This document shows, piece by piece, positions 35,339 to 54,723 of a stretch of DNA of 64,000 nt. The number at the start of each line of letters is the position of its first letter. Within the stretch, counting starts at the first letter, position 1. This stretch comes from Candidatus Babelota bacterium. GTDB taxonomy: Bacteria; Babelota; Babeliae; Babelales; Babelaceae. The stretch spans positions 1,899 to 65,898 of the forward strand of contig JABDCP010000003.1 of NCBI GenBank assembly GCA_013288045.1. The letters are read 5' to 3'. Under the pieces are notes generated by a model. That model was not told the DNA's origin, did no database searches, and saw only the letters and a program-made list of their open reading frames with translations. Both the position numbers and the translations under genes were made by a program.

Positions 35339-36691
35339 TTAACCACTATGGCCGGTCAGCATTGCATTGGCGGCTATGCCTGCACCAATACCAGCTGCCC
35401 AACAAAGTGCCTGTTTGAGTTCAAAGGACCTTTCTGGATTTGCTTTCTTGACCAGAGTATATGCCCCTAGACCAGCTGCGCTATATACCAGCCATGTAGA
35501 CTTAGGGGTAAAACGATCAGGTTTATTATAGTCTCGACCTACTAAAAGTCCTAAGCAAAGACCTCCAAGAAGATCACCAGTAGACCCTTTAAGAAATTCA
35601 GGAGCTGTATCTTCTTCAGTGGTTTCATGAAAGTGAGGGACCTTAGAATTAGAATGACGGCTTGGAAGACGATGTGCCCGTTTCATACAGGCGAGCTCTT
35701 CTCGCTTGCCCGTATTAATGACCACTACCTGCCAATCTCTTGGATCAAGATGTTTTGGTAGCAGCTTATTTAGTTGTGCATCTTCTTTGGTGAGATCCTT
35801 GATAGGGTACAAGTCCGGGAGCACACGCAGATTGCCTTGTTTTAAACCAAACTTTTTACGGAATTCATCAGGCGTCATGCCATCGATGGTATCATCCTCA
35901 TCATCAGGTATATCAAAAGTTACATTCTTCTTTGTTTGCTTAGGAGCTACTTTTGAGGTAGCGGATACTCTGCGCTCTACCGGAATATGTTCTTGAAACA
36001 GGTCACTTGCTGCAGAGCGTATTTTTTGAAGACTCATGGATTCTTTTTTAGTAGGGGCTCTTTGTAAGTATTTCAGTATAACCTGATCATTTCCATCCTT
36101 TTGGAGGGGATCTATGATCTTCATCGGTTTTCTACAGGTAGGGCATTGATGCTTGTTTCGGGCTGCTTTTAGAGCTTCTTCCAGAGAAAGGTTATGTCCA
36201 CACCCTAACTCAATAATGATATGACCTTTATCTACCTCTTGTTGAGAAGCAGAGCATTTTCGTAGTACAGTATCAGGAGCTGGCTTAGTTGATGGCGTAT
36301 GTCTCATTAAATACGCGCGTAGCTTGTTTTGTTCTTGAACGTTGAGCGGCTTTTGACGATGGTGTACGTATGCATAGCTATTCTTATTGACCCGAGGATC
36401 ATGTACTTTGTAGGTGCTACGGCAGGTTGGACATGCCTTATCCATTGGATTTGCAAGATCCATTGCGTTCACACAATCTAAGCAATAATGATGGTTAACT
36501 TTTTGCTGACAATCGAACTGAATGACGATACTGTCAGGTGTATAAGCGGTCATACAAATGGGACAGCCTGTTCCCTCATCCTCTTCCTCTACTTCATGAG
36601 TATGAGCTCTCGGTCCTGTGGCCCAGAGACTTGGGGTAATACTACCAAAAAGCACTGCTACACCGAGCAGGGTAATAAATAATTTCTTCAT
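35339..36691 (-). CDS. Signal-peptide protein with RING-like zinc finger(s) and C-terminal glycine-zipper TM region
   Basis: CPIC-x14-C-x5-HH-x-C-x2-C-x13-C-x2-C (GCPICMTAYTPDSIVIQFDCQQKVNHHYCLDCVNAMDLANPMDKACPTCRSTY), plus a second degenerate copy (LGCGHNLSLEEALKAARNKHQCPTCRKPM). The C-terminus has GLCLGLLVG and AAGIGAGIAANAML. Confidence 0.7.
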   Translation of the reverse strand: MKKLFITLLGVAVLFGSITPSLWATGPRAHTHEVEEEDEGTGCPICMTAYTPDSIVIQFDCQQKVNHHYCLDCVNAMDLANPMDKACPTCRSTYKVHDPRVNKNSYAYVHHRQKPLNVQEQNKLRAYLMRHTPSTKPAPDTVLRKCSASQQEVDKGHIIIELGCGHNLSLEEALKAARNKHQCPTCRKPMKIIDPLQKDGNDQVILKYLQRAPTKKESMSLQKIRSAASDLFQEHIPVERRVSATSKVAPKQTKKNVTFDIPDDEDDTIDGMTPDEFRKKFGLKQGNLRVLPDLYPIKDLTKEDAQLNKLLPKHLDPRDWQVVVINTGKREELACMKRAHRLPSRHSNSKVPHFHETTEEDTAPEFLKGSTGDLLGGLCLGLLVGRDYNKPDRFTPKSTWLVYSAAGLGAYTLVKKANPERSFELKQALCWAAGIGAGIAANAMLTGHSG

Positions 36692-36780
36692 AGTAAACTT
36701 CCACATTTTAGATTTTCTTATATGTTTATATAAGTAGTATAGCCTAAAATGAATAAAACCTTAAGTGGGTAGAAGAAAGC

Positions 36781-38499
36781 TTATTCTGAAGCTGTTTTGG
36801 ACTGCTTATCTACGGCTTGGGCGTATCTTACAAGGAACTGATAGGCAACACGGATCGCATGACTAGATGAGCCTGCATGCTCTATAAGGATAATAAGGAC
36901 ACGGGGCTTTTCATGCTTATACTGTACATGCGCTGCAAAATACCCATGTGGCATATCTTTCTTTCGTATTGGCTGAGCATGACGTGCTCTAACCTGGGCA
37001 GTACCCGACTTTCCCTTGAGTTTAAATCCCTTTAGAGAGCCAAGCATAGAACCGGTACCTTGAGTAATTACCCCCTGTAGGCACTCTTGAATGTAGGAAA
37101 GCGTAGAAGGCCTTATGGATAAGAGTTCATGAACAATGGGGTCATCGGTGAGGATCCGAGGTCGTACCCGATAGCCGGTGCATACTGCCGATAGTAGACA
37201 GGCTATCTGTAAGGGGGTTACAAGAAGGGAGCTCTGTCCAATGGCAGCTGAAAGTGTTTCTCCGGGCCACCATGGTTCATTTTTTACTCTTCTTTTCCAT
37301 TGGGAGGTTGGAATGAGCCCCTGCTGTTCAGGGAATAATATTCCTGTCTTGTTTCCGAGTCCAAGATCTTGTGCGTACCAGGCAAGGGTGTCTATTGAAA
37401 GACGTTTTCCGATCTCATAAAAGGGCTGATTGCAGGAAAGGGCGAAGGCCTGTTTGGTTGTTAGGGCACCATGTACGGCATCATTGTTGCAATGGTAGTG
37501 TCTTCCCTTGAAATCAGTATAGCCCCGACAGTTCCAATGCGTATGAGGGGTGACAATGCCTGTTTCAAGGCCAGCTGCGAGGCTTACCAGCTTAAAAAGG
37601 GACGCAGGAGGGTAACATGCGCTGAAGGCCCGATTCATGAAGCCTTTTTTCTCCTGCAGAAGGCCCCATTGAGAGTGGGTAATAGGTTTAAGAAAGATAT
37701 TTGGATCAAATGAAGGTCGTGAGAGAACTACTTCAAGGGCCCCGTCCTCGTCCATAAAGATGATGCTCCCTTCAAGATCCTGAGGAAATATCTCTTCAGC
37801 AAACTGTTGAAAAGATAGGTTTAAGGTCGTTTGAAGTGTTTTACCGGCAAGGGCGTGGGAGATGGTATGGGCATGTAGAGGGTTGCCTATGGCATTGGTA
37901 ACCTTAAGTATTTGTCCTGCTTGGCCCTGGAGATCTTCTTCATACAACCTCTCAAGTCCCATTTTTCCTTGGAGAGATTCTTTAACGCTTAGGTACCCAA
38001 TAATATGACAGGCGGTGGTGCTGTAAGGATAGCATCGCTCATAGGTCTGCTTTATAGAAAGATTCCTGGAGGTAGGTAGAGTTTCAAGAACTGTGCTGAG
38101 CTGCTCATAGGAAATATCATGAACAAGCTTAAGTTTCGAAGAACGTCTCTCAGCTATTTCTATATCTTGCAGGACTTCTTGGTCGAGATTGCATATAAGG
38201 AGAGCTTGTTGCGCACTCTGCCGTTGTCCTGCTGAAAGGGTTACCTTACCGCTGCCTTCCCACAGTAATGAATAGACCGGTCTGTTTGTGACAAGCAGCG
38301 TACCCTGTTGGTCGGTAATGTTTCCTCGAGGTGAGGCAACCTTTTCCGTTCTGAGATAGTTACGCTTACTCAGGCTCTTAAACTGATGCATCTGACTAAT
38401 TTGTAGATGGAATAAATAAAGTACGATCGTTGAAAGCGCGAAGAATATCAGGAAAAGTATATGCCTCATTCGTGCTGAAAAAATGTGGGGAATATACAT
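36781..38499 (-). CDS. mrdA: Penicillin-binding protein 2 (elongation transpeptidase)
   Basis: Motifs are SxxK (ASLFKLV), SxN (SCN) and KSG (KGKSGTA), with an N-terminal TM anchor. A GGGAG SD sits in the 9-nt gap after the upstream regulator gene. Confidence 0.9.
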   Translation of the reverse strand: MYIPHIFSARMRHILFLIFFALSTIVLYLFHLQISQMHQFKSLSKRNYLRTEKVASPRGNITDQQGTLLVTNRPVYSLLWEGSGKVTLSAGQRQSAQQALLICNLDQEVLQDIEIAERRSSKLKLVHDISYEQLSTVLETLPTSRNLSIKQTYERCYPYSTTACHIIGYLSVKESLQGKMGLERLYEEDLQGQAGQILKVTNAIGNPLHAHTISHALAGKTLQTTLNLSFQQFAEEIFPQDLEGSIIFMDEDGALEVVLSRPSFDPNIFLKPITHSQWGLLQEKKGFMNRAFSACYPPASLFKLVSLAAGLETGIVTPHTHWNCRGYTDFKGRHYHCNNDAVHGALTTKQAFALSCNQPFYEIGKRLSIDTLAWYAQDLGLGNKTGILFPEQQGLIPTSQWKRRVKNEPWWPGETLSAAIGQSSLLVTPLQIACLLSAVCTGYRVRPRILTDDPIVHELLSIRPSTLSYIQECLQGVITQGTGSMLGSLKGFKLKGKSGTAQVRARHAQPIRKKDMPHGYFAAHVQYKHEKPRVLIILIEHAGSSSHAIRVAYQFLVRYAQAVDKQSKTASE

Positions 38500-41223: not shown

Positions 41224-41239
41224 AGGTCTAAACTTTTTG

Positions 41240-41267
41240 TTGACTTTTGAGGAAACTGTTATAGAAT
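41240..41267 (+). promoter_or_regulatory. Sigma-70-type promoter, cassette 1
   Basis: TTGACT (41240-41245), 16-nt spacer, TAGAAT (41262-41267). The spacer sequence is almost identical in all three cassettes. The -35 lies 17 nt from the divergent regulator ATG. Confidence 0.6.
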
Positions 41268-41401
41268 CACTTTACAGAAAATCTAATCAAAAAGAGTTTA
41301 ACTCCGTAGCAGCTAATGTCAAATTATGCGCAATGGTTGCTACTTGAAGCTAAGGAATTGTAGTTGGTGGTTTTTTAACATATTTTCAAAAAGGAGTAAC
41401 G

Positions 41402-41524
41402 ATGGCTAAACTAATTGTTAGCGCATTGTTCGCTATACTAATGACTGGTGCAGTAGCTGAAGTTTCTGCACAGACTCGGTCCGAGGCAGCTAAAACGTAT
41501 GCAATCGCCCCGTTTCCGTTCTAA
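41402..41524 (+). CDS. Small secreted peptide precursor 1 (40 aa)
   Basis: AGGAG lies 5 nt before the ATG. Product is MAKLIVSALFAILMTGAVAEVSAQTRSEAAKTYAIAPFPF, with a signal-peptide-like N-half and a VSA|Q site. Changes relative to copy 2 are mostly synonymous. Confidence 0.7.
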   Translation: MAKLIVSALFAILMTGAVAEVSAQTRSEAAKTYAIAPFPF

Positions 41525-41540
41525 AGTATTTTAACTATAA

Positions 41541-41574
41541 AGAAAGAACCCCTCGAATTCGAGGGGTTCTTTCT
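41541..41574 (+). terminator. Terminator, cassette 1
   Basis: agaaagaacccctcg - aatt - cgaggggttctttct: a 15-bp perfect stem with a T-rich tail. Confidence 0.8.
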
Positions 41575-41671
41575 TATAGTTAGGTTTCGCAGCTACTAGT
41601 GCTGGGAATGTGCCCCAAACCTCTGCTTTTAAAGTGTATTGTTCTCCCTAAGAATTTCCTATTCACTTTGG

Positions 41672-41699
41672 TTGACTTTTGAAGAAACCGTTATAGAAT
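41672..41699 (+). promoter_or_regulatory. Sigma-70-type promoter, cassette 2
   Basis: TTGACT (41672-41677), 16-nt spacer, TAGAAT (41694-41699). Confidence 0.6.
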
Positions 41700-41826
41700 A
41701 ATTTATAAGAACCGTACATAAAAATAATATAACTTCGAGCAGCAGCTTATAGTAATTACTTGGCGGCTGTTTGGGTTTTGAGAATTGTGGTGGGTTGGTT
41801 TTATTATTATTCAAACAGGAGTGACG

Positions 41827-41949
41827 ATGACAAAGCTAATTCTTGGTGCTTTGCTTGCTATGTTAATGATTGGTGCAGTAGTTGAAGTTTCTGCACAGAC
41901 TCGGTCAGAGGCCACCAAAACATATGCGGTCTGCCCATTTCCGTTCTAA
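41827..41949 (+). CDS. Small secreted peptide precursor 2 (40 aa)
   Basis: AGGAG lies 5 nt before the ATG. Product is MTKLILGALLAMLMIGAVVEVSAQTRSEATKTYAVCPFPF. Confidence 0.7.
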   Translation: MTKLILGALLAMLMIGAVVEVSAQTRSEATKTYAVCPFPF

Positions 41950-41965
41950 CTTATTCTAACTATAC

Positions 41966-42003
41966 AAGGAAGAACCCCTCGAATCTAGAGGGGTTCTTCC
42001 TTT
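41966..42003 (+). terminator. Terminator, cassette 2
   Basis: aaggaagaacccctc - gaatcta - gaggggttcttcctt: a 15-bp perfect stem. Confidence 0.8.
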
Positions 42004-42090
42004 ATGGCTAAGGTGTCGAGGCTATCATTGAGGGGAAAGCACCCCAAATTGTATGTACGTTAGATCTAAGATTTTCCAGTTCACTTTTGG

Positions 42091-42118
42091 TTGACTTTCG
42101 AGAGAACTGTTATAGAAT
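42091..42118 (+). promoter_or_regulatory. Sigma-70-type promoter, cassette 3
   Basis: TTGACT (42091-42096), 16-nt spacer, TAGAAT (42113-42118). Confidence 0.6.
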
Positions 42119-42233
42119 CCTCTGTAAGAACTGTACATAAAAATAATATGCCTGCGAGTAGCAGCTTATAATAGGCGGCTATTGGAGTTTTGAATTGTAG
42201 TGTGTTGTTTTATAGTATCCAATAGGAGTGTCT

Positions 42234-42359
42234 ATGACAAAGCTGATTTTTAGCGTATTGCTCGCTATATTAATGACAGGTGCAGTTGTTGAAATATCTG
42301 CGCAAGCAAAGCGTTCAACCGTTTCTGCAACTTGCACCGAAGCGCGGTTTCCGTTCTAA
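42234..42359 (+). CDS. Small secreted peptide precursor 3 (41 aa)
   Basis: AGGAG lies 5 nt before the ATG. Product is MTKLIFSVLLAILMTGAVVEISAQAKRSTVSATCTEARFPF. Confidence 0.65.
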   Translation: MTKLIFSVLLAILMTGAVVEISAQAKRSTVSATCTEARFPF

Positions 42360-42368
42360 GTTAAAGTT

Positions 42369-42409
42369 AAAAGAAAGAGCCCCTCGAATTTCGAGGGGCT
42401 CTTTCTTTT
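42369..42409. terminator. Bidirectional terminator shared by cassette 3 and the convergent regulator gene
   Basis: aaaagaaagagcccctc ... gaggggctctttctttt: a 17-bp perfect stem with A/T runs on both sides. It lies 24 nt from the stop of the 42433-45141 gene. Confidence 0.8.
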
Positions 42410-42432
42410 AATAATAGTTTTCAAGTTGGAGG

Positions 42433-45141
42433 CTAGTTGCTTCTCAAATTAAGCTCTCGGCATCTACGGTTCACCGAAGATCTATTCACACCAAGAAGAT
42501 GAGCAATTTTACTTTGATTTTTGAAGGTATACCAGAGCTGAGCCATTATGTGTGGATCGCGGAGTGCTTTTTTCCCTAGTCTTACAGCTTGAGCGATGAC
42601 CGGATCGGTAATACTATTCACCGGATCGATTTTCTCAATGTCTGTGATATTATGTGATCGGGACTTTTCAAGAAGCAGCTCTTGAATTCGCTCTTTAAGC
42701 TCTTGCAAGCTGAGAGGACATTCCTTGATAAGTTGTGAAGTTTCCTTTGGTGTGATACTCAAGAGGTCTTTGAACGTATCAGTAGTGATTAGTTGATCGG
42801 CATATCCTTGTGCAAGCAGGGTGATATCTTCATGAGCAAGGTCAGTTAATGAAGGGAGACTTATGGTAGTGGCTTGCAGCTGCTCAAAGAGCTCTCGAGA
42901 AAAGATTCCTTCATTCACTAATACAGAAAGATCTTTTGACGTTGAACAGATGATGCGGGCAGAGCTCATTATTTTTTGGTCGCTTTTTACTTTATAAAAG
43001 TACCCCATGCGGATGTACTGGGCCAAGGCCTCTTGTGAGGTGAGACTTAACAGTTCCAGATTTTGAATAAAGAGGGTGCCTGATTCATCGAGCTTGGTAA
43101 GCAGACTTTCAGATTGACTACCGCCCAGGAGGTCATTGATCCCAAAGAGCTGTGTGGAGATTTCATCATGCTGCTCATGTTGGGTAAGCTTGAGGGTGTA
43201 CAAGTTCCTCCTTAGACTTATCGAATGGAGTAATGTTACTGCTGAAAGCAGATCTTCCTCAGGCAACGAAAGAAGGACAGCTTTTCTGGTTAAGGCCGCA
43301 GAAAGAAGTCCAATTTTAAAGGACAAGAGTGCCTCAGAGGTGCCAGGAATAAGTTCATTAATAAGCCGCCCCGATTGGGTTGTTTCTAAATAGAGCACAT
43401 AGTCCCAACAGGAGGGATCTTTTAAATACCCAGCATGGGGTTTTAGCAAATCTGAAATTTCTGGATAGTAGAGGAGGAGTATACTTGAGGTCGTATCTGC
43501 ATTTGGAATACCTGAGATCACCAGCTTAGTGCCACGCGTATCCTTACCGTAGGCTATTTGTGCAGTTTTATACTGTTCAACCCGTTGTGCTACGGTCGTG
43601 CATACTTTGGTGAGTGGATGTCCTGAGAGCTTATTCAGATCAAAGCCCACGAGGTCATGAGCAGCTTCATTGGCATATGAAAAAGTGCGATTCTTATAGG
43701 ATATGATGCCGATTTTTCGCTCATGAGAGGTGCGCATGAATGAGCGTATCAGCTCCTTGTACTGATTAATTTCTTGATGCTTATGATAAAGTTCCTCAGT
43801 AAGCTGTTTCTTTTGTACATGCAACGCCTCCATACTACTCTGTTGCAGTGCGGAAATGACGTTACTTATATACGAGGTAAACACGAGCATTTCATCCCGT
43901 TCTTTATTTGTGTAGAGCTTATCAGGTCGTGCATCGCGTTCTACCATAATATAGGCAACTATCCTTGACTGTTCGTAAATTGGTACAAAGAGATCAGCAT
44001 GGATCAAATCAAGGAAAGCGAGAATCTTTCTGTTGAGATCTGAAGCCTCATAGAAATAGGAAAATTCTACGGAATCTCGAATAAATATTTTATCGCGGGC
44101 TAAAGCGGCACGTAATAATTCATCCTCTTTAAGAAATTGGTCAATTTTTAGCGCTGCTCCTATGGCTTCTGGCGAAGTGATCGCGGCATCTTTAATGAAG
44201 AGCCGGGTAAAACTGAGTCGTATACCGAAGGCTGTATGAAAAAAGGTCTGGGTGATATGGCCCAGTTCATTGACTGCTGAGGCATACCTCACCTGCTCCA
44301 AGATGTCCTTAAAATTAGTAAGAAAGTTAAAGGGTACCTTCGAGGTGACATCTGAATGTAGATTAAGCAATCTCAGGCCGAGCATTTTTTTGCTCAAAGT
44401 TATCAGAAGAATGGCACTGCAGAGGGCACCAAGAGTGGCCCAGGAGTATTGACCTAAGGGGAAAGGAATATGTGCCGCACTAAAAATGGTGTACCAGCCG
44501 TCACCAAACAGAAGCAAGGAAAAAGGAAAGAGGTACAGGAGGCATGATTGTGCCTGAACAGCCAAAATTTTAGGAAGTGTTCTGGTGCGTAGTTTTCGTA
44601 TAAGGAATATAAAAAGACCCAAATACAAGACAAATACATAACAATAACTCGCAGAAATTACGTTATGCTCAAGGAGATATTCGCTGCTTGATGTAACTAC
44701 CGGAATTCCATAATAGGCTCCCGCTTCATATAAGAAAAAGCTGGTGAACAGGAGATTGCACAGAAGGCTGAAAATATGAAGGAAGGTGCACTTAATTCTT
44801 TGGGTTAAGAGGTATTCAAAAAAGAGGACTAATGCCTGATGTGCAGTTATGAAAAGACTCAAAGAAATCCGGCAATAGAGGGTAAAAAGGGGGATGTCGC
44901 CCTGTATTTCAAGAATCCTTCGTAAGACGACCGATCCAATATAGGTAGCATCATCAAGGAGCGTTCCGAAAAGAAATATGAGTAACAGAAAAAGAGGTGC
45001 CCTGAGCTGTGGTTTATTATACCAGAACTTGACAATAAACCGACTAATAACGAGCTTGGCAATGCCCACAAGGATGAGAGCGCTACACGTTATATACGGA
45101 TTAACAAGGAAGGAGGTGAGTGCTTCCAATAAGTGGTTCAT
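42433..45141 (-). CDS. Paralogue of the 38509-41223 membrane regulator (same architecture)
   Basis: Colinear with the first regulator along its full length, e.g. GDIPLFTLYCRISLS, FNFLTNFKDILEQVRYASA, AYIMVERDARPDKLYTNKERDEMLVFT and GTLFIQNLELL..ARIICSTSKDL, with HTH IAHLLGVNRSSVNRRCRELNL. I chose ATG 45141 (MNHLLEAL) because it aligns with the paralogue's N-terminus; the tracked ORF starts at TTG 45213. Confidence 0.7.
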   Translation of the reverse strand: MNHLLEALTSFLVNPYITCSALILVGIAKLVISRFIVKFWYNKPQLRAPLFLLLIFLFGTLLDDATYIGSVVLRRILEIQGDIPLFTLYCRISLSLFITAHQALVLFFEYLLTQRIKCTFLHIFSLLCNLLFTSFFLYEAGAYYGIPVVTSSSEYLLEHNVISASYCYVFVLYLGLFIFLIRKLRTRTLPKILAVQAQSCLLYLFPFSLLLFGDGWYTIFSAAHIPFPLGQYSWATLGALCSAILLITLSKKMLGLRLLNLHSDVTSKVPFNFLTNFKDILEQVRYASAVNELGHITQTFFHTAFGIRLSFTRLFIKDAAITSPEAIGAALKIDQFLKEDELLRAALARDKIFIRDSVEFSYFYEASDLNRKILAFLDLIHADLFVPIYEQSRIVAYIMVERDARPDKLYTNKERDEMLVFTSYISNVISALQQSSMEALHVQKKQLTEELYHKHQEINQYKELIRSFMRTSHERKIGIISYKNRTFSYANEAAHDLVGFDLNKLSGHPLTKVCTTVAQRVEQYKTAQIAYGKDTRGTKLVISGIPNADTTSSILLLYYPEISDLLKPHAGYLKDPSCWDYVLYLETTQSGRLINELIPGTSEALLSFKIGLLSAALTRKAVLLSLPEEDLLSAVTLLHSISLRRNLYTLKLTQHEQHDEISTQLFGINDLLGGSQSESLLTKLDESGTLFIQNLELLSLTSQEALAQYIRMGYFYKVKSDQKIMSSARIICSTSKDLSVLVNEGIFSRELFEQLQATTISLPSLTDLAHEDITLLAQGYADQLITTDTFKDLLSITPKETSQLIKECPLSLQELKERIQELLLEKSRSHNITDIEKIDPVNSITDPVIAQAVRLGKKALRDPHIMAQLWYTFKNQSKIAHLLGVNRSSVNRRCRELNLRSN

Positions 45142-45303
45142 TGACAATGTCTCTAGTCCCTCACAGGAGGGTATATATAAAATGAGTACTGCTTGTATTA
45201 TTAATTTAAACAAATTGGTCTATTGGTCAAATGGTTGGGCGTCTCCTTTGTTGTCTAATGGGCAGTAAAAAGGTAAAGTAGCACATAGGTAGCAAGGAGT
45301 GGC

Positions 45304-45966
45304 ATGCAGCTTCAGGAAAAAATAGTACGTATTATACAGCTTTTAAAGGAGGCAACAAAAGATATGCCTCCGACCTTAACGACGTCCCTCATAAGAGAGT
45401 ATGGGCGGGACCCGTTTATTATCCTTATTTCGTGTCTTTTAAGCCTTCGTGCAAAAGATACTGCCACCTATCCGGTCAGTAAAAAGCTCTTTGAGCGGGT
45501 GCGTACCCCTGAAGAGCTGCTTAAGATGCCTGTAAGGGAGCTTGAAGAGCTTCTGTATCCCCTTGGCTTTTATCGCAAGAAGGCCCAAACTGTCCGATCG
45601 GTTTGCCAAGAGCTCATTACGAGATTTAAGGGGAAGGTGCCCCAAACTGAAGAAGAGCTTCTCTCGTTAAAGGGCGTAGGGCGGAAAACAGCCCAGCTCG
45701 TACTAGGCAGTGCATTCAAGGTACCCACTATTTGCGTTGATACCCATGTACATAGGATTGCCAATAGGCTTGGCTGGATCCAGACGACCCATCCTGATGA
45801 AACGGAAAGGGAATTAAAACGGCTCATTCCACAAGAATATTGGCTGGATATTAATACCTATCTCGTTATGTGGGGCCAGAATATCTGTGTACCCATCTCA
45901 CCCAAATGTTCTCAATGTGTTTTGAGTCCCTTATGCCCTAAAATTGGCGTAGGGAAAAGAAGGTAA
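45304..45966 (+). CDS. nth: Endonuclease III
   Basis: HhH motif LKGVGRKTAQLVL, catalytic region CVDTHVHRI and the 4Fe-4S ligands CVPISPKCSQCVLSPLC. Confidence 0.9.
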   Translation: MQLQEKIVRIIQLLKEATKDMPPTLTTSLIREYGRDPFIILISCLLSLRAKDTATYPVSKKLFERVRTPEELLKMPVRELEELLYPLGFYRKKAQTVRSVCQELITRFKGKVPQTEEELLSLKGVGRKTAQLVLGSAFKVPTICVDTHVHRIANRLGWIQTTHPDETERELKRLIPQEYWLDINTYLVMWGQNICVPISPKCSQCVLSPLCPKIGVGKRR

Positions 45967-46221: not shown

Positions 46222-46569
46222 ATGAAACTATACGTAGGAAACCTTTCCCGCTCTACAACGGATGATACGGTTCGACAAGCATTTGAACAATTTGGCGAAG
46301 TATCGTCAGTTCGAATTCTCTTCGATCGTGAAACCCGCCAATCTCGTGGTTTCGGCTTTGTCGAAATGCCACAAGATGAGCAAGCGAAAGAAGCTATGGA
46401 TAAGCTTAATGAAACTGAAATTGAAGGTCGTCGCATTCGTGTAAACGAAGCGCGCGAACCAGAACGCACCGGCGGAAGCAGTGGTGGTGGCCGTTCAGGT
46501 GGTGGTTTCCGCGGTGATCGCGGCGGTGACCGTGGTCCACGTGATGGCGGTTTTAGAAATCGTTTCTAA
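46222..46569 (+). CDS. RRM-type RNA-binding protein with Gly/Arg-rich tail
   Basis: RNP-2 LYVGNL, RNP-1 RGFGFVEM and a C-terminal GGSSGGGRSGGGFRGDRGGDRGPRDGGFRNRF. Confidence 0.9.
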   Translation: MKLYVGNLSRSTTDDTVRQAFEQFGEVSSVRILFDRETRQSRGFGFVEMPQDEQAKEAMDKLNETEIEGRRIRVNEAREPERTGGSSGGGRSGGGFRGDRGGDRGPRDGGFRNRF

Positions 46570-46586
46570 GTTTTGAAACAAACAAA

Positions 46587-46616
46587 AGGGTGGGCCTTAA
46601 AACCCACTCTTTTTTG
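46587..46616 (+). terminator. Terminator of the RRM gene
   Basis: agggtggg / cccactct stem with an 8-nt loop, then T6. Confidence 0.65.
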
Positions 46617-46681
46617 TTGTCTAAATTTTGGGGTGGTAGTGCAATACTCCCATGCTCCAAAGCTCTTTCTAAATTAATTCA

Positions 46682-47416
46682 TTATTGATTTGTAGGTATG
46701 GTCGTGCTTAACAAGGCGCAGCTACAATATTTGTTAAATATATAGGCTTTAAGGGCATTACTCATTCCTTGAGGAAAAGGAAATAGAAATTCAAAGGATG
46801 GATTTGGATTATTACAATCATTGGAGGTGGTGATAAAAACATGAAAAACTTGATTTTTTGGTAAAGGAAAGGCGGAAAAGGTACGTTCAAAAGGTGATTC
46901 ATGTGCAGTAACTGTAATTGGAGGGTGAATTAGATTGAGTTCAGTGTCCTCTACCTGTACTTCAAAAGAAACTTCCCCTGAGTCTTGGCCGCCCGGGTCA
47001 GTAACACTGAGCGTGAAGCATCCCGGACCATCTCCTAGAGGCAAAGAGTTAATCGACAGGCTTACTGATTTGGTTTGAGATGTTGAAGGTAGAATGCTAT
47101 AGGTTATTTGGTTATTTAAAGTGTCCGTTACGATCAAATCATATTTAGTAAATTCTCCAAATACTGGTACCGTGAATGTTGCAGTTGGAGCTACTATAGG
47201 GGAGCTACTAAAGGGGAGGCCTGAATTAACTATGGTATAGGTATAATTACCTGCAGAACTAGGTGTACCACCAGCGGCGATTGCTGAGATGTTTGTAGTT
47301 GATGATACACATCCGCTAGGATTGATTGTTATATTCGAGATAAATAATGGTTGTGACCCTGTCTGGGCTGCGAGGCTCACAGACCAAGCGAGTAACGTGA
47401 GTAAGAATTTCTTCAT
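46682..47416 (-). CDS. Secreted protein, FISNI...FPFPQGM family, member 3
   Basis: N-terminus MKKFLLTLLAWSVSLAAQTGSQPLFISNITI and C-terminus LFPFPQGMSNALKAYIFNKYCSCAL. Confidence 0.75.
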   Translation of the reverse strand: MKKFLLTLLAWSVSLAAQTGSQPLFISNITINPSGCVSSTTNISAIAAGGTPSSAGNYTYTIVNSGLPFSSSPIVAPTATFTVPVFGEFTKYDLIVTDTLNNQITYSILPSTSQTKSVSLSINSLPLGDGPGCFTLSVTDPGGQDSGEVSFEVQVEDTELNLIHPPITVTAHESPFERTFSAFPLPKNQVFHVFITTSNDCNNPNPSFEFLFPFPQGMSNALKAYIFNKYCSCALLSTTIPTNQ

Positions 47417-47727
47417 AATGCTTCTCTTTAGTAAAAATGTAATAGTTAGGTTCTGATATCTCAAATCTTGCTGATCACAAACTACCATAGTCCCCTTAAT
47501 GAAAACAATAATTTTACGCTCATGAAACTGAATACATGAAACTATAGCCGGGAACCCGGGAAACTACCAATGCTTGAGCCAGTGCGTTCAAAGCGATGGC
47601 GGTTTTAGAAATCGTTTCTAAGTTTTGAAACAAACAAAAGGGTGGGCCTTAAAACCCACTCTTTTGTTTGTTGTCTATATGTTGAGAGGTGCAGTACAAT
47701 ACCCGAGATGTTCCTCAGAGCTCTTAG

Positions 47728-48420
47728 TTAGGATTGGCTGGCAGGTATGGTGGTGCTAATTAACGCACAGCTGCAATATTTAGTAAAGATATACGTCTTC
47801 AGGGCATTACCCATTCCTTGAGGAAAAAAGGGAAAGGTAATGGAGATAGTAGAGAGGCCGTTATCATTACAATCATTGTTCAGAAAGAAAAGAGCAGTAA
47901 GTGGTATTGAACTTTTGAAAGCAGAGAACGTCTTTGTAAAAGGGGCTTTGCTCAGTGTCTGTACTACGGGTGATCCATCTGAGACAGAAAATTGAACCGA
48001 AGTTGTTGAAGCCGATGGATCAATAACCGTTAAGGTGATGCATCCTGGGCTAGTTCCTAGAGGTAATGAACCGACCGATACGCTGATAGACTGGGCACTA
48101 AATGGTTCAAATAAAACGGGATAGATTACCTGGTTGGTACTGCTATCTGTTATTACTAGATCAAAGTTTCCCGATTCGACATCACTAAATTGTACCGTTG
48201 TTCCAACTTCGGTTATGCCATTTAACTGATAGGTATATGAACCATCTGTTGCAGGCTGACCACCTGAGGCAGTCACTGATATATTTGCGGTGTCTGTACA
48301 TCCTGGAAGTTGAGGTGGAGGATAATTAAAAGTTATGTTGGAGATAAACAATGGTTGTGGCCCTGTCTGCGCTGCAAGGCTTACAGACCAGGCGAGTAAC
48401 GTGAGTAAGAATTTCTTCAT
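47728..48420 (-). CDS. Secreted protein, FISNI...FPQGMGNALK family, member 4
   Basis: N-terminus MKKFLLTLLAWSVSLAAQTGPQPLFISNITF and C-terminus TFPFFPQGMGNALKTYIFTKYCSCAL. Confidence 0.75.
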   Translation of the reverse strand: MKKFLLTLLAWSVSLAAQTGPQPLFISNITFNYPPPQLPGCTDTANISVTASGGQPATDGSYTYQLNGITEVGTTVQFSDVESGNFDLVITDSSTNQVIYPVLFEPFSAQSISVSVGSLPLGTSPGCITLTVIDPSASTTSVQFSVSDGSPVVQTLSKAPFTKTFSAFKSSIPLTALFFLNNDCNDNGLSTISITFPFFPQGMGNALKTYIFTKYCSCALISTTIPASQS

Positions 48421-52782: not shown

Positions 52783-54723
52783 ATGCAGGTTCTTCTTTCC
52801 CGTAAAGTTTTTTTTGTACCCTTGGTGACTATCCTTTTTCTTGTCCCAAGCAGAGTACTGTATGCACAAGAGAGTATTCCAACTATTATTCCGGCAGTCA
52901 TCCAGGGAGGCTGCAGTGTCTGCGGAACTACTTCTTGTATTAACTGTCCCAAATTCTCAGGGGTAACCCGTGCTGTAAGTGACCAGGTGTCAGTAGGCTG
53001 TGGTGCCTGTAAGGATACTGGTGAATTTTGTAACGACACAGCTTGTGCCTGTTTTATTGATCCCAGAGCATCACGAGGTGTGTGCCGTGGTCGGACTGAC
53101 TGCAGTATGAGAGAGCTACCCCCTTATTCAGCATTTATTCCTCGGTCACAAGGTACCAATACTGCGCGAGAATTAGCAGGCTGGGAAGAGTTTATTCATC
53201 AGTTTGATGTAGGGGAGTATTACCTTACGACCGGCCATGTTCTTGGCTATTATCATTCCTTTAGGCCTGAGAGGATCGCACGAGAACTTTTTGGAGAGAC
53301 TGTGCTTCGGTTTGCCGGAAGTCAGGTGCCTAACAGAGGTTGCTGTGAGTTGCTTGCTGATAATTTTGGGTTATCAGATACCTTGCGTGGTGTCGTGACC
53401 ATCGAACCTACTATTGAGAATATCGTCTTTGATAACCAATTTTTCATTGGACTTGATCCACTTGCGTGTGGGTTGTATGCCCGTATACATGTGCCGATAG
53501 TGCATACCCGCTGGAATCTTAATCTCTGTCAAAAAATAGAAAGTGTACAGCCTTGTCCTGATTTCCCTGCATGCTATATGGCAGATGAGGCGGTACCTGC
53601 CCAGTGTGATATTATCAAGGCACTGAGTGGACAGCATACCTTTGGTGATATGCAAACTCCCTGGGCCTATGGACGCATAAAAAATGGTCCTCAAACAAAG
53701 ACCGGACTTGCTGATATAGATCTTATTGTAGGGTATGACTTTAGGCAAACTGATACTTCCCATCTAGGATTCTATGCGCAAGCAGTACTCCCTACTGGGA
53801 CAAAGTTTACGGCACGAGAGCTTTTCCAGCCTCTTGTGGGTAATGCCCATCATTTTGAGTTGGGAGTTGGGGTGAGCAGCCATTGGATTCTTTTAGAGAG
53901 CGACGCTCACAGTAACCTTGCCCTGTACTTAGAGGGAAATGTCGTTCATATGTTTAAAAATACTCAGATGCGTACCTTTGATTTTTGTAATAATGGTCCT
54001 TTAAGTCGATATATGTTGCTTAAAGAGCTTACTGAAGAAGATGGACAATTTACCTATGCAGGCTCGCTTATTAATGCAGTTAACTTTGCTACTCGCCCAG
54101 TATCAGTAAGCATAGCAGCGAAAGGTGATATTAGTGCTAAGCTTGCTGTCCGGACCCCTCATATTATTGCTGATATTGGCTATAACTTTTATGGACGCAC
54201 CAAAGAAAATGTGCATATTAATTCGTGCTCAGATGAACGTATCTATGCTATAAAAGGTACAGAGGGCGTGTGTGGCCTTGAATACATGACAGATGGCATG
54301 CAATTTGGTTCCTTTGTGGGGGATATTCCTCTTAATTCGTCGCAAAGCCATGCAACGATTAGACGTGGAGCCCATACTGATAATCCGCAACCTGCACCAC
54401 AAGCGAGTCCGTCAGATATTGTGGTCGCCGCTTTTAGTAGGCAAGAAGGCTCCATTGAAGGGCCTGACGTTAAGAAAGCCTTCGTCTCAGCTCCTCCCAA
54501 ATTAGTTACCGTCCGCGACCTTCATAAGGCAAGCGGAACATCTCCATCGCAAGCAACCCATAAGGTATTTGGGTATCTTGGGTACAATTTCTATGATTGT
54601 GACTGGTGTGCGACCCCGTATCTTGGCATTGGTGGTGAAGTTGAGTTTGATGCGCTCTTTCGTGAGGATCGTTCTTCTTTAAACCAATGGTCAGTCTGGG
54701 TTAAAGGTGGGTTTGAATTTTAA
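52783..54723 (+). CDS. Putative outer-membrane beta-barrel (porin-like) protein with Cys-rich N-terminal module
   Basis: Signal peptide ...RVLYA|QE. Fourteen Cys lie within about 80 aa of the mature N-terminus (GGCSVCGTTSCINCPKF..GCGACKDTGEFCNDTACACF..GVCRGRTDC). Amphipathic strands alternate along the rest, and the C-terminus VWVKGGFEF resembles a beta-signal. Confidence 0.6.
   Translation: MQVLLSRKVFFVPLVTILFLVPSRVLYAQESIPTIIPAVIQGGCSVCGTTSCINCPKFSGVTRAVSDQVSVGCGACKDTGEFCNDTACACFIDPRASRGVCRGRTDCSMRELPPYSAFIPRSQGTNTARELAGWEEFIHQFDVGEYYLTTGHVLGYYHSFRPERIARELFGETVLRFAGSQVPNRGCCELLADNFGLSDTLRGVVTIEPTIENIVFDNQFFIGLDPLACGLYARIHVPIVHTRWNLNLCQKIESVQPCPDFPACYMADEAVPAQCDIIKALSGQHTFGDMQTPWAYGRIKNGPQTKTGLADIDLIVGYDFRQTDTSHLGFYAQAVLPTGTKFTARELFQPLVGNAHHFELGVGVSSHWILLESDAHSNLALYLEGNVVHMFKNTQMRTFDFCNNGPLSRYMLLKELTEEDGQFTYAGSLINAVNFATRPVSVSIAAKGDISAKLAVRTPHIIADIGYNFYGRTKENVHINSCSDERIYAIKGTEGVCGLEYMTDGMQFGSFVGDIPLNSSQSHATIRRGAHTDNPQPAPQASPSDIVVAAFSRQEGSIEGPDVKKAFVSAPPKLVTVRDLHKASGTSPSQATHKVFGYLGYNFYDCDWCATPYLGIGGEVEFDALFREDRSSLNQWSVWVKGGFEF

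Follow-up and report, generated by a model that had tools for sequence, protein, structure and literature searches.

Pro-Pro mini-proteins encoded beside membrane-anchored regulators of Dependentiae: a triplicated cassette and its candidate partners

The described systems closest to the locus reported here are the SHP/Rgg and PrgQ/PrgX pairs of Firmicutes, the Phr/Rap pairs of Bacillus, AgrD/AgrC, and the single-helix mini-protein MgrB with the sensor PhoQ. In SHP/Rgg, the gene for a short hydrophobic peptide lies adjacent to, and divergent from, the gene for its regulator. We found the same arrangement in a 64,000-nt stretch of a Candidatus Babelota genome (contig JABDCP010000003.1; this whole stretch is hereafter called the window), in which three tandem cassettes at 41224-42432, each encoding a peptide of 40 or 41 amino acids (aa), are flanked by two paralogous genes for predicted seven-transmembrane (7-TM) regulators. 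The peptides represent a real, conserved and apparently undescribed family of mini-proteins, and we see about an even chance that they act in trans on the adjacent regulators, whether as ligands, as pheromone-like signals or as modulators embedded in the membrane. The flanking genes have relatives in metagenome-assembled genomes (MAGs) of Candidatus Dependentiae/Babeliales, and Babela massiliensis has a homologue. Dependentiae are obligate intracellular parasites of protists. In the genome paper on Chromulinavorax, quorum-sensing mechanisms were stated to be absent (PMC6561590).

Three small-protein genes and their family

The three direct repeats start 425-432 and 405-419 nt apart, and their alignment has a mean column identity of 77%. 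As laid out in the first-pass annotation of this DNA, each comprises a promoter, a leader, an AGGAG Shine-Dalgarno sequence 5 nt ahead of the ATG, an open reading frame (ORF) of 40, 40 or 41 codons and a hairpin (Table 1); all three peptides end in FPF. The promoters are near-consensus for sigma-70, and their 28-nt pattern occurs three times in 64 kb against an expectation of zero. If transcription starts ~7 nt past the -10 hexamer, the leaders would be 109-128 nt long. The hairpins had been described as perfect, with stems of 15-17 bp: perfect inverted repeats they are, of 18, 15 and 22 nt and each followed by a T run. The last of them is bidirectional and probably also ends the transcript of the second regulator. 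Given that each cassette has its own promoter and strong terminator, with no same-strand gene downstream, the cassettes would act in trans.

Comparison of the copies and their orthologues supports the view that the window ORFs are genuine protein-coding genes under purifying selection. Between copies 1 and 2 there are 12 synonymous and 11 non-synonymous substitutions, so that the earlier description of these changes as largely synonymous was an overstatement; the purifying selection read from them is borne out by the dN/dS of 0.24 between these two copies, a calculation that had been proposed as a check. Copy 3 differs from both by an in-frame 3-nt indel. In locus L002/L003 (MAG MFD06714.bin.2.5), whose DNA is 95% identical, all three ORFs are intact and free of frameshifts, the second check that had been suggested, and terminator 1 in L002 carries a compensatory double substitution. 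Among the short forms of the family described below, pN was lower than pS in 5/5 pairs compared.

Judged by eye and by rule, the window peptides have the make-up of cleavable Sec-type signal peptides: 3/3 copies begin with M-A/T-K, continue with 15 hydrophobic residues and reach V/I-S-A↓Q (arrow, cleavage site). AxA-like sites are also present in long-form relatives (VVA↓Q, VNA↓E, ATA↓T, ALA↓L and VAA↓Q).

A scan for ORFs with aromatic-x-aromatic C-termini found none beyond the close relative, which exposed FPF as a non-conserved ending, and a homologue search with peptide 2 returned a single cluster, the same 95% relative. Word-based protein searches being too insensitive for such peptides, relatives were reached via the regulator. 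The sample comprised 78 metagenomic loci, located with the regulator alignment, and eight genomic loci with regulator relatives. Small ORFs were required to have a Shine-Dalgarno sequence, an ATG, a length of 25-85 aa, an N-terminal K/R and a hydrophobic 12-mer; the C-terminus was left unconstrained. A hydrophobic small ORF was found on the opposite strand, 0-500 nt upstream of the regulator, in ~50 of the 78 metagenomic loci, and nearly all of these ORFs ended in PP-x(1-3). Among the 88 regulator genes with enough upstream sequence, 63 had a partner under a strict filter (a few doubtful), and a relaxed scan added about 10 more. As background, PP occurred within the last 10 aa of 1.4% of 4880 other small ORFs from the same loci, and of 2.5% of the hydrophobic ones. 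Synteny with the flanking regulators, a further check put forward in the first-pass annotation, was thereby found across the Dependentiae loci surveyed.

The small ORFs of the family encode 22-49 aa and comprise a helix, hydrophobic or amphipathic, and after it [D/R/E]-[Y/F/W]-P-P-x(1-3)-stop. The 64 short forms (22-39 aa, median 29) show three hydrophobic positions, then D (15), R (11) or E (9), then Y (13), F (12) or W (10), the two prolines, most commonly G (22) as the next residue, zero to two further residues and the stop codon. Only 1-3 residues follow PP in 56/64; across the short forms, the residues past PP are variable (GN, GQ, CS, SA, GGGI, V, TL and others); an N-terminal K/R is present in 53/64. 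The features of a cleavable Sec-type signal peptide are not found family-wide, as in the short forms the helix runs straight into the PP tail. The original proposal of secreted 17-18-aa peptides can hold at best for the exported-looking products of the window's clade, and is given up for most other members, which at 22-35 aa are too short to contain both a cleaved signal peptide and a mature part.

Among the long forms, locus L004 (regulator 61% identical) has two like-built cassettes between paralogous regulators, encoding MAKYFFSAC...VVSA↓QGHQTQKKIEVPLGGGPPWIIGR and a 49-aa sister. In other long-form relatives, with regulators 49-87% identical to the window's, the peptides end in IPGPPWNH (L010), MVGEPC (L012), MCEPPY (L014), GEGPPY and ASGPPY (L015), PTPPGDY (L016), ILPIPY (L090), APVPPPYD and STDGPPF (L092), as well as GPPWIIGR. 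FPF is limited to the window species and its relative L002. On this comparison, FPF is a local spelling of P-[P/F/I]-P-aromatic, and what the family conserves is Pro-Pro beside an aromatic residue. Searches of Pfam, NCBIfam and PADLOC with the peptides (E up to 0.01-1) gave no family, a TadE-like match on the hydrophobic segment being sub-threshold, and full-text literature searches turned up no account of peptides or regulators of this kind in Dependentiae, in agreement with the initial impression that no described family was at hand.

In L092, which has three tandem regulators, the third cassette (11805-11897, - strand) holds a 30-aa ORF, MAKLIIGIFLGILVMLDNVKYLRVIQRDLS, with the family N-terminus and no Pro-rich C-terminus, probably a decaying copy. 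In MAG OY969428 (L010 1360-1824 and 9557-9697; L005 16002-16466), the regulator paralogues lie ~12 kb apart, with inserted or duplicated genes between them that include repeated 405-aa and 195-230-aa ORFs. An identical second peptide cassette there stands beside a 34-aa C-terminal regulator fragment; judged from this arrangement, the extra cassette and the fragment are the trace of a segmental duplication or rearrangement.

The leaders of the long forms share a 16-nt box, GAATTGTAGTNGGTGG (GAATTGTRGTNKGTKG), ~45 nt 5' of every long-form ATG. It has three matches in the window against 0.04 expected, all confined to the cassettes, and is kept in 13 long-form cassettes at eight loci (10 cassettes from seven related loci plus the window). 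On the opposite strand the box reads TACAAT, which is -10-like, and it could serve as an operator or as a weak antisense promoter. The consensus RNA structure of the 13 aligned leaders had zero predicted pairs, and hairpins seen by eye in single copies were not conserved in position. An Rfam scan of 38-46 kb (E up to 1) gave sub-threshold matches only, on terminator hairpins, and hence no known RNA family in that interval. The sigma-54 -24/-12 pattern occurred 32 times against 32 expected, with no sensibly placed instance.

Because the cassette-1 peptide promoter lies 17 nt from the start codon of the divergent regulator 1, the promoter of the latter must sit within the cassette-1 leader. A scan placed a candidate there that faces the peptide promoter, with predicted start sites ~14 bp apart, such that transcription of peptide and regulator 1 would be convergent and overlapping. 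The corresponding TGTCAA and AGTTTA elements reappear in the cassettes nearest the regulator in L012, L092, L090 and L010, and are absent from window copies 2 and 3.

The flanking regulators and their coupling to the peptides

The two flanking regulators are 49% identical over 905 aa (BLASTP). Their Pfam matches cover only positions 93-166 of the 168-position Sigma54_activat model, and the best NCBIfam match, TyrR, is far under its cut-off. An AlphaFold2 model of regulator 1, built on 51 homologues (pLDDT 81), has seven long helices within residues 14-255, connected by loops of 4-16 residues, and no periplasmic domain. The cytoplasmic part consists of an alpha/beta domain (272-438; GAF-like by architecture), a coiled coil (441-475), a PAS-like domain (482-562), an AAA+ domain (580-800) and a helical helix-turn-helix (HTH) region (850-900). 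With loops this short and no periplasmic domain, any sensing must take place in or at the membrane. Residues R90 and E157 are at least 90% conserved and, according to a topology assigned by eye with the positive-inside rule, would lie toward the periplasmic ends of TM3 and TM5. As for the second regulator, its listed TTG start adds ~25 N-terminal residues absent from relatives; translation probably begins at the Met of MNHLLEAL..., which would make the gene shorter than the ORF.

The AAA+ domain has the fold of bacterial enhancer-binding proteins (bEBPs), matching PspF and NtrC1 structures in Foldseek (TMt 0.63-0.69, E ~1e-8) and NtrC1 in a profile search (E 7.5e-20). The motifs that define sigma-54 activators, a GAFTGA loop and intact Walker A and B sequences, are not found. 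The NtrC1 stretch ELFGYEKGAFTGA aligns to LFGiNp--ll of the regulator, where GAFTGA is absent; LFLDEI in Walker B of NtrC1 aligns to LFIQNI, with DE replaced by QN; and the Walker A region falls outside the alignment, the regulator reading LPEEDL there. Given the unalignable Walker A and the altered Walker B, the regulators are probably not ATPases, and we take them to be, in all probability, membrane-anchored, ATPase-dead and sigma-54-independent relatives of bEBPs.

The first-pass annotation had offered the peptides as possible ligands of the flanking membrane sensors, and this is the reading that comparative genomics favours: small ORFs stand divergently upstream of ~80% of homologous regulators, were duplicated together with them, and fall into subtypes that follow regulator clades. 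Where regulators occur in tandem, a small ORF is kept between the copies, and the numbers of regulators and peptides covary (1/1 in L090, 2/3 in the window, 2/2 in L004, 3/2 plus the decayed copy in L092). First-position regulators are accompanied by peptides of the form K/R-TM-[D/E]x[F]PPG and second-position regulators by amphipathic R-[WFY]-PP peptides, e.g. MDAHIILTIVHHVAEFLNVFFLFLRYPPN. In the window's clade, the cassettes remained between the regulators and became separated from nth. Peptide distances correlate with regulator distances for the TM domain (rho 0.41) and for the cytoplasmic part (rho 0.32), with partial correlations of 0.30 and 0.15, respectively (permutation p 0.001), a difference that is suggestive only, as the TM domain also evolves faster.

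The coordinates of the locus are collected in Table 1. Its edges, nth and pbp2, delimit a block (nth - small ORF - regulator(s) - ~1 kb - pbp2) that is syntenic across the phylum.

Table 1. Features of the cassette region and the surrounding conserved block (positions in the window).
Feature	Coordinates	Strand	Remarks
pbp2/mrdA-like transpeptidase	36781..38499	-	directly downstream of regulator 1 (9 nt after it); block edge
Regulator paralogue 1, 904 aa	38509..41223	-	divergent from cassette 1
Promoter, cassette 1	41240..41267	+	TTGACT-16-TAGAAT, as in cassettes 2 and 3
Candidate promoter of regulator 1	41295..41322	-	TTGACA-16-TAAACT
Leader box, copy 1	41355..41370	+	GAATTGTAGTTGGTGG
Peptide ORF 1	41402..41524	+	MAKLIVSALFAILMTGAVAEVSA↓QTRSEAAKTYAIAPFPF; also a called gene on the source contig
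Terminator 1	41540..41575	+	perfect 18-bp palindrome, then T-rich tail
Promoter, cassette 2	41672..41699	+	
Leader box, copy 2	41782..41797	+	
Peptide ORF 2	41827..41949	+	MTKLILGALLAMLMIGAVVEVSA↓QTRSEATKTYAVCPFPF
Terminator 2	41966..42002	+	15-bp stem
Promoter, cassette 3	42091..42118	+	
Leader box, copy 3	42192..42207	+	
Peptide ORF 3	42234..42359	+	MTKLIFSVLLAILMTGAVVEISA↓QAKRSTVSATCTEARFPF
Terminator 3	42367..42411	.	perfect 22-bp palindrome between an A run and a T run
Regulator paralogue 2, 926 aa as listed	42433..45213	-	3' end abuts terminator 3
nth, endonuclease III	45304..45966	+	block edge

Beyond pbp2, the 455-aa product of the gene at 35339-36706 (-) has a hydrophobic C-terminus and two RING-finger regions of eukaryotic type (Pfam zf-RING_2, E 9e-9), and looks like a host-targeting effector; it is kept downstream of pbp2 in L002, L090 and L092. 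On the nth side, 46222-46569 (+) encodes a 115-aa RNA-binding protein with an RRM domain and an RGG/GGR-rich tail, 100% identical in the 95% relative and syntenic with nth in close relatives. Farther on, 46682-47488 and 47728-48420 (both -) are tandem paralogues of 268 and 230 aa, secreted-looking, with the N-terminus MKKFLLTLLAWSVSLAAQTG in common and a shared C-terminal ...KYCSCAL(L/I)STTIP...; the one tested had no Pfam match. Each is followed by a repeated segment with near-identical small ORFs (MKQTKGWALKPTL...) at 46573-46677 and 47625-47759. Finally, the ORF at 52783-54723 (+), earlier pointed out for its FEF ending, does encode 646 aa that terminate in ...WVKGGFEF, an outer-membrane protein (OMP)-like C-terminal signature. 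Its orthologue in L002 has no Pfam match on record, and a 656-aa ORF in L005 also ends in GGFEF.

Weighing the explanations

A functional partnership between peptides and regulators has several observations to contend with. Adjacency by itself is weak evidence, since gene order is strongly conserved in reduced intracellular genomes, and the quicker evolution of the TM domain may be all that lies behind the mirror-tree signal. For about 20% of regulators, no partner ORF could be detected, and the nth-proximal paralogue in the window's clade has no small ORF upstream. The peptides of the second paralogue are amphipathic and not clearly transmembrane, so that a single mechanism fits them less well. 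Only 12/62 short-form loci have an obvious terminator between the small ORF and nth, and in the others the small ORF could be an nth leader. Membrane topology and the signal-peptidase site are by-eye calls.

These points lend themselves to other explanations, of which the best-surviving, in our estimate unlikely, holds that the small ORFs encode real small envelope proteins unrelated to the regulators, with the adjacency inherited and the duplicates passive. The phylum-wide synteny of the nth-pbp2 block is what such inheritance would leave behind, and a tandem duplication copies an upstream ORF automatically. Passive duplicates sit less well with both ancient paralogue lineages having kept their own specialised small ORF although the regulators are only ~40% identical, or with the peptide divergence following the regulator TM domain beyond the cytoplasmic domain. 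When the gene order changed in the window's clade, moreover, the cassettes stayed with the regulators and not with nth, and the peptide and regulator promoters are interleaved.

We consider it less probable still that the small ORFs are cis-acting leader peptides, at whose C-terminal Pro-Pro the ribosome would pause or arrest (EF-P-dependent or arrest-like) and so control nth or the balance of the peptide and regulator promoters, the product itself being functionless. With G, N, D or W after PP and the stop 1-3 codons farther on, the C-termini resemble known stalling contexts. In the short-form loci, nth lies on the same strand 18-100 nt past the small ORF, mostly with no clear terminator in between. 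An enrichment of RAPP-like motifs has been reported for the C-termini of small proteins, secretory or membrane-bound, that are encoded ahead of a variety of genes (PMC12992588), and an R two residues ahead of PP, in 11/64 short forms, is superficially like RAPP/RAGP. RAPP-type arrest, however, requires an irreplaceable Arg and a small residue (G/A/S/P) before PP (PMC12992588), while the residue directly before PP is Y, F or W in 13, 12 and 10 of the 64 short forms and the one before that is D or E (15 and 9) as well as R. Force-dependent release of the SecM/MifM type would be impossible, because at a median of 29 aa the helix should still be in the exit tunnel when PP is decoded; length and motif together ruled out a secretion monitor, which we had considered separately. 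The arrangement of RAPP-like arrest peptides, an upstream ORF in one transcript with its target, is not that of the window cassettes: these and all other long-form ORFs end at a strong terminator with no same-strand gene next, and small ORFs between tandem regulators have just the convergent 3' end of a regulator downstream. The retention of a hydrophobic or amphipathic helix and of an N-terminal K/R further suggests selection on the mature product.

A third idea, that the peptides are periplasmic mimics of OMP C-termini acting as decoys or signals for BAM or DegS-type PDZ proteases, had been raised in the first-pass annotation and now seems very improbable. It had in its favour the F-P-F ending of the window peptides and their orthologues in the 95% relative, the nearby OMP-like ORF ending in FEF, and an N-terminus that by eye resembles a signal peptide with an AxA site. 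The family does not keep the aromatic-x-Phe C-terminus of OMP beta-signals and DegS-activating peptides: among relatives, the extreme C-terminus varies (PIPY, PPPYD, GPPF, GPPY, EPPY, GPPWNH, GPPWIIGR, PPGDY, GEPC), short forms end in variable residues past PP, the conserved feature is PP rather than a Pro at -1 of a Y-x-F-type motif, and the length of most members would not allow a soluble periplasmic peptide to be made from them. Mimicry of ligands of eukaryotic EVH1, WW or GYF domains by (D/E)FPP, another possibility, was set aside, as the tail would point into the bacterial periplasm and a bacterial regulator goes with the gene.

Just as slight is the likelihood of type I toxin-antitoxin-like loci in the manner of ldr, ibs or shoB, with an antisense RNA starting in the leader box: the ~420-bp tandem repeats with long leader, strong Shine-Dalgarno sequence, hydrophobic peptide and strong terminator, the minus-strand TACAAT and a weak sub-threshold Rfam match to OhsC at a terminator would suit it, but the locus is fixed, syntenic and usually single-copy beside one regulator family throughout the phylum instead of patchy or mobile, the C-terminal PP motif and this clade's AxA site are foreign to type I toxins, the TACAAT lacks a -35 or extended -10, and the Rfam matches, all on hairpins, are far under gathering scores.

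Proposed mechanism and comparison with known systems

For the peptides as trans-acting partners of the adjacent regulators, we propose the following course. Each cassette, from the promoter and hairpin elements observed, would be transcribed from its strong sigma-70-type promoter and ended at its own terminator, and the 40-aa precursor would be inserted or exported, its N-terminus remaining cytoplasmic. Signal peptidase I would probably, in the window's clade, cut at V/I-S-A↓Q, leaving the P-x-P-aromatic C-terminus at the periplasmic face. The 7-TM bundle of the regulator, with R90 and E157, could then bind the tail or the whole mini-protein, and binding would alter the output through the GAF-like, PAS-like and dead AAA+ domains and the HTH, probably with sigma-70 RNA polymerase. 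Targets would include the peptide and regulator genes themselves, given the facing promoters, and possibly the downstream pbp2.

More tentatively, and with considerable doubt on our part, we suggest a phylum-wide form of peptide signalling in Dependentiae, in which an aromatic-Pro-Pro mini-peptide at or from the inner membrane would be sensed directly by a new class of 7-TM, DNA-binding, pseudo-AAA+ one-component regulators. Their output would set the timing of programmes that depend on population or compartment, for instance cell-wall synthesis or division, pbp2 being the gene immediately downstream. Amplification within single lineages, of which the three cassettes are an example, would in that case tune signal dose or specificity.

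If the pairing is functional, it defines a mini-protein family that annotation has missed and, at the same time, the ligand or partner of a conserved but uncharacterised 7-TM regulator, which is among the very few regulators that these reduced genomes possess. The pairing would constitute a rare instance of ribosomally made peptide signalling, or of sensor control by a mini-protein, in a diderm bacterium, and of a membrane-anchored bEBP relative devoid of ATPase and sigma-54 contact motifs. It would also offer a handle on how uncultivated intracellular Dependentiae control a developmental or cell-envelope programme. More generally, the neighbours that a regulator keeps most faithfully can be ORFs of 22-35 aa, which most gene callers would pass over as too short.

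The module is a member of none of the shp/rgg, prgQ/prgX, Phr or MgrB-PhoQ systems, since receptor class, motif and host phylum differ. Its likeness to SHP/Rgg and PrgQ/PrgX goes beyond gene orientation: the 22-35-aa ORFs have a basic N-terminus, a hydrophobic body and a conserved, presumably active C-terminal part, often preceded by an acidic residue, and the interleaving of peptide and regulator promoters recalls PQ and PX of PrgQ/PrgX. Unlike the cytoplasmic TPR/RNPP receptor of SHP/Rgg, however, the receptor here is a 7-TM protein with GAF-like, PAS-like, dead AAA+ and HTH domains; the host is a diderm and obligately intracellular; and the motif [D/R/E]-[YFW]-P-P is unrelated. The long forms of the window are built like Phr pre-pro-peptides: in ~40 aa, a Sec-type signal peptide leads through a short hydrophilic spacer to the conserved C-terminal motif. 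They are likewise encoded beside a putative receptor gene, but there is no Rap/TPR receptor, and the peptide gene is separate, divergent or between regulators rather than in a rap operon. As in AgrD/AgrC, a sensor with 6-7 TM segments, short loops and no large extracytoplasmic domain has a small peptide encoded nearby; here it comes without an AgrB-like processing enzyme or a thiolactone, and its output is a direct HTH, not a kinase. With the RAPP/RAGP arrest peptides and their kin (ApdA, ApdP, SecM) the mini-proteins share small size, an N-terminal hydrophobic segment and Pro-Pro near the stop, whereas they do not keep the essential Arg and the small residue ahead of PP, the length of their ORFs would not permit force sensing, and the ORFs of the window are monocistronic with their own terminators. 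The regulators, for their part, resemble TyrR and other bEBPs in their AAA+ fold and C-terminal Fis-type HTH and, as in TyrR, have no GAFTGA loop, but they carry an N-terminal 7-TM domain, and all scores are far under the family cut-offs. MgrB-PhoQ, like SafA-PhoQ and AcrZ-AcrB, differs in sequence and in its partner, which here would be a one-component DNA-binding 7-TM regulator in place of a histidine kinase; unlike that of mgrB, the gene adjacency here is systematic. The resemblance to these pairs is one of design: a 25-50-aa single-helix mini-protein, N-terminus in and C-terminus out, with a very short periplasmic tail, as a plausible feedback partner of a membrane sensor.

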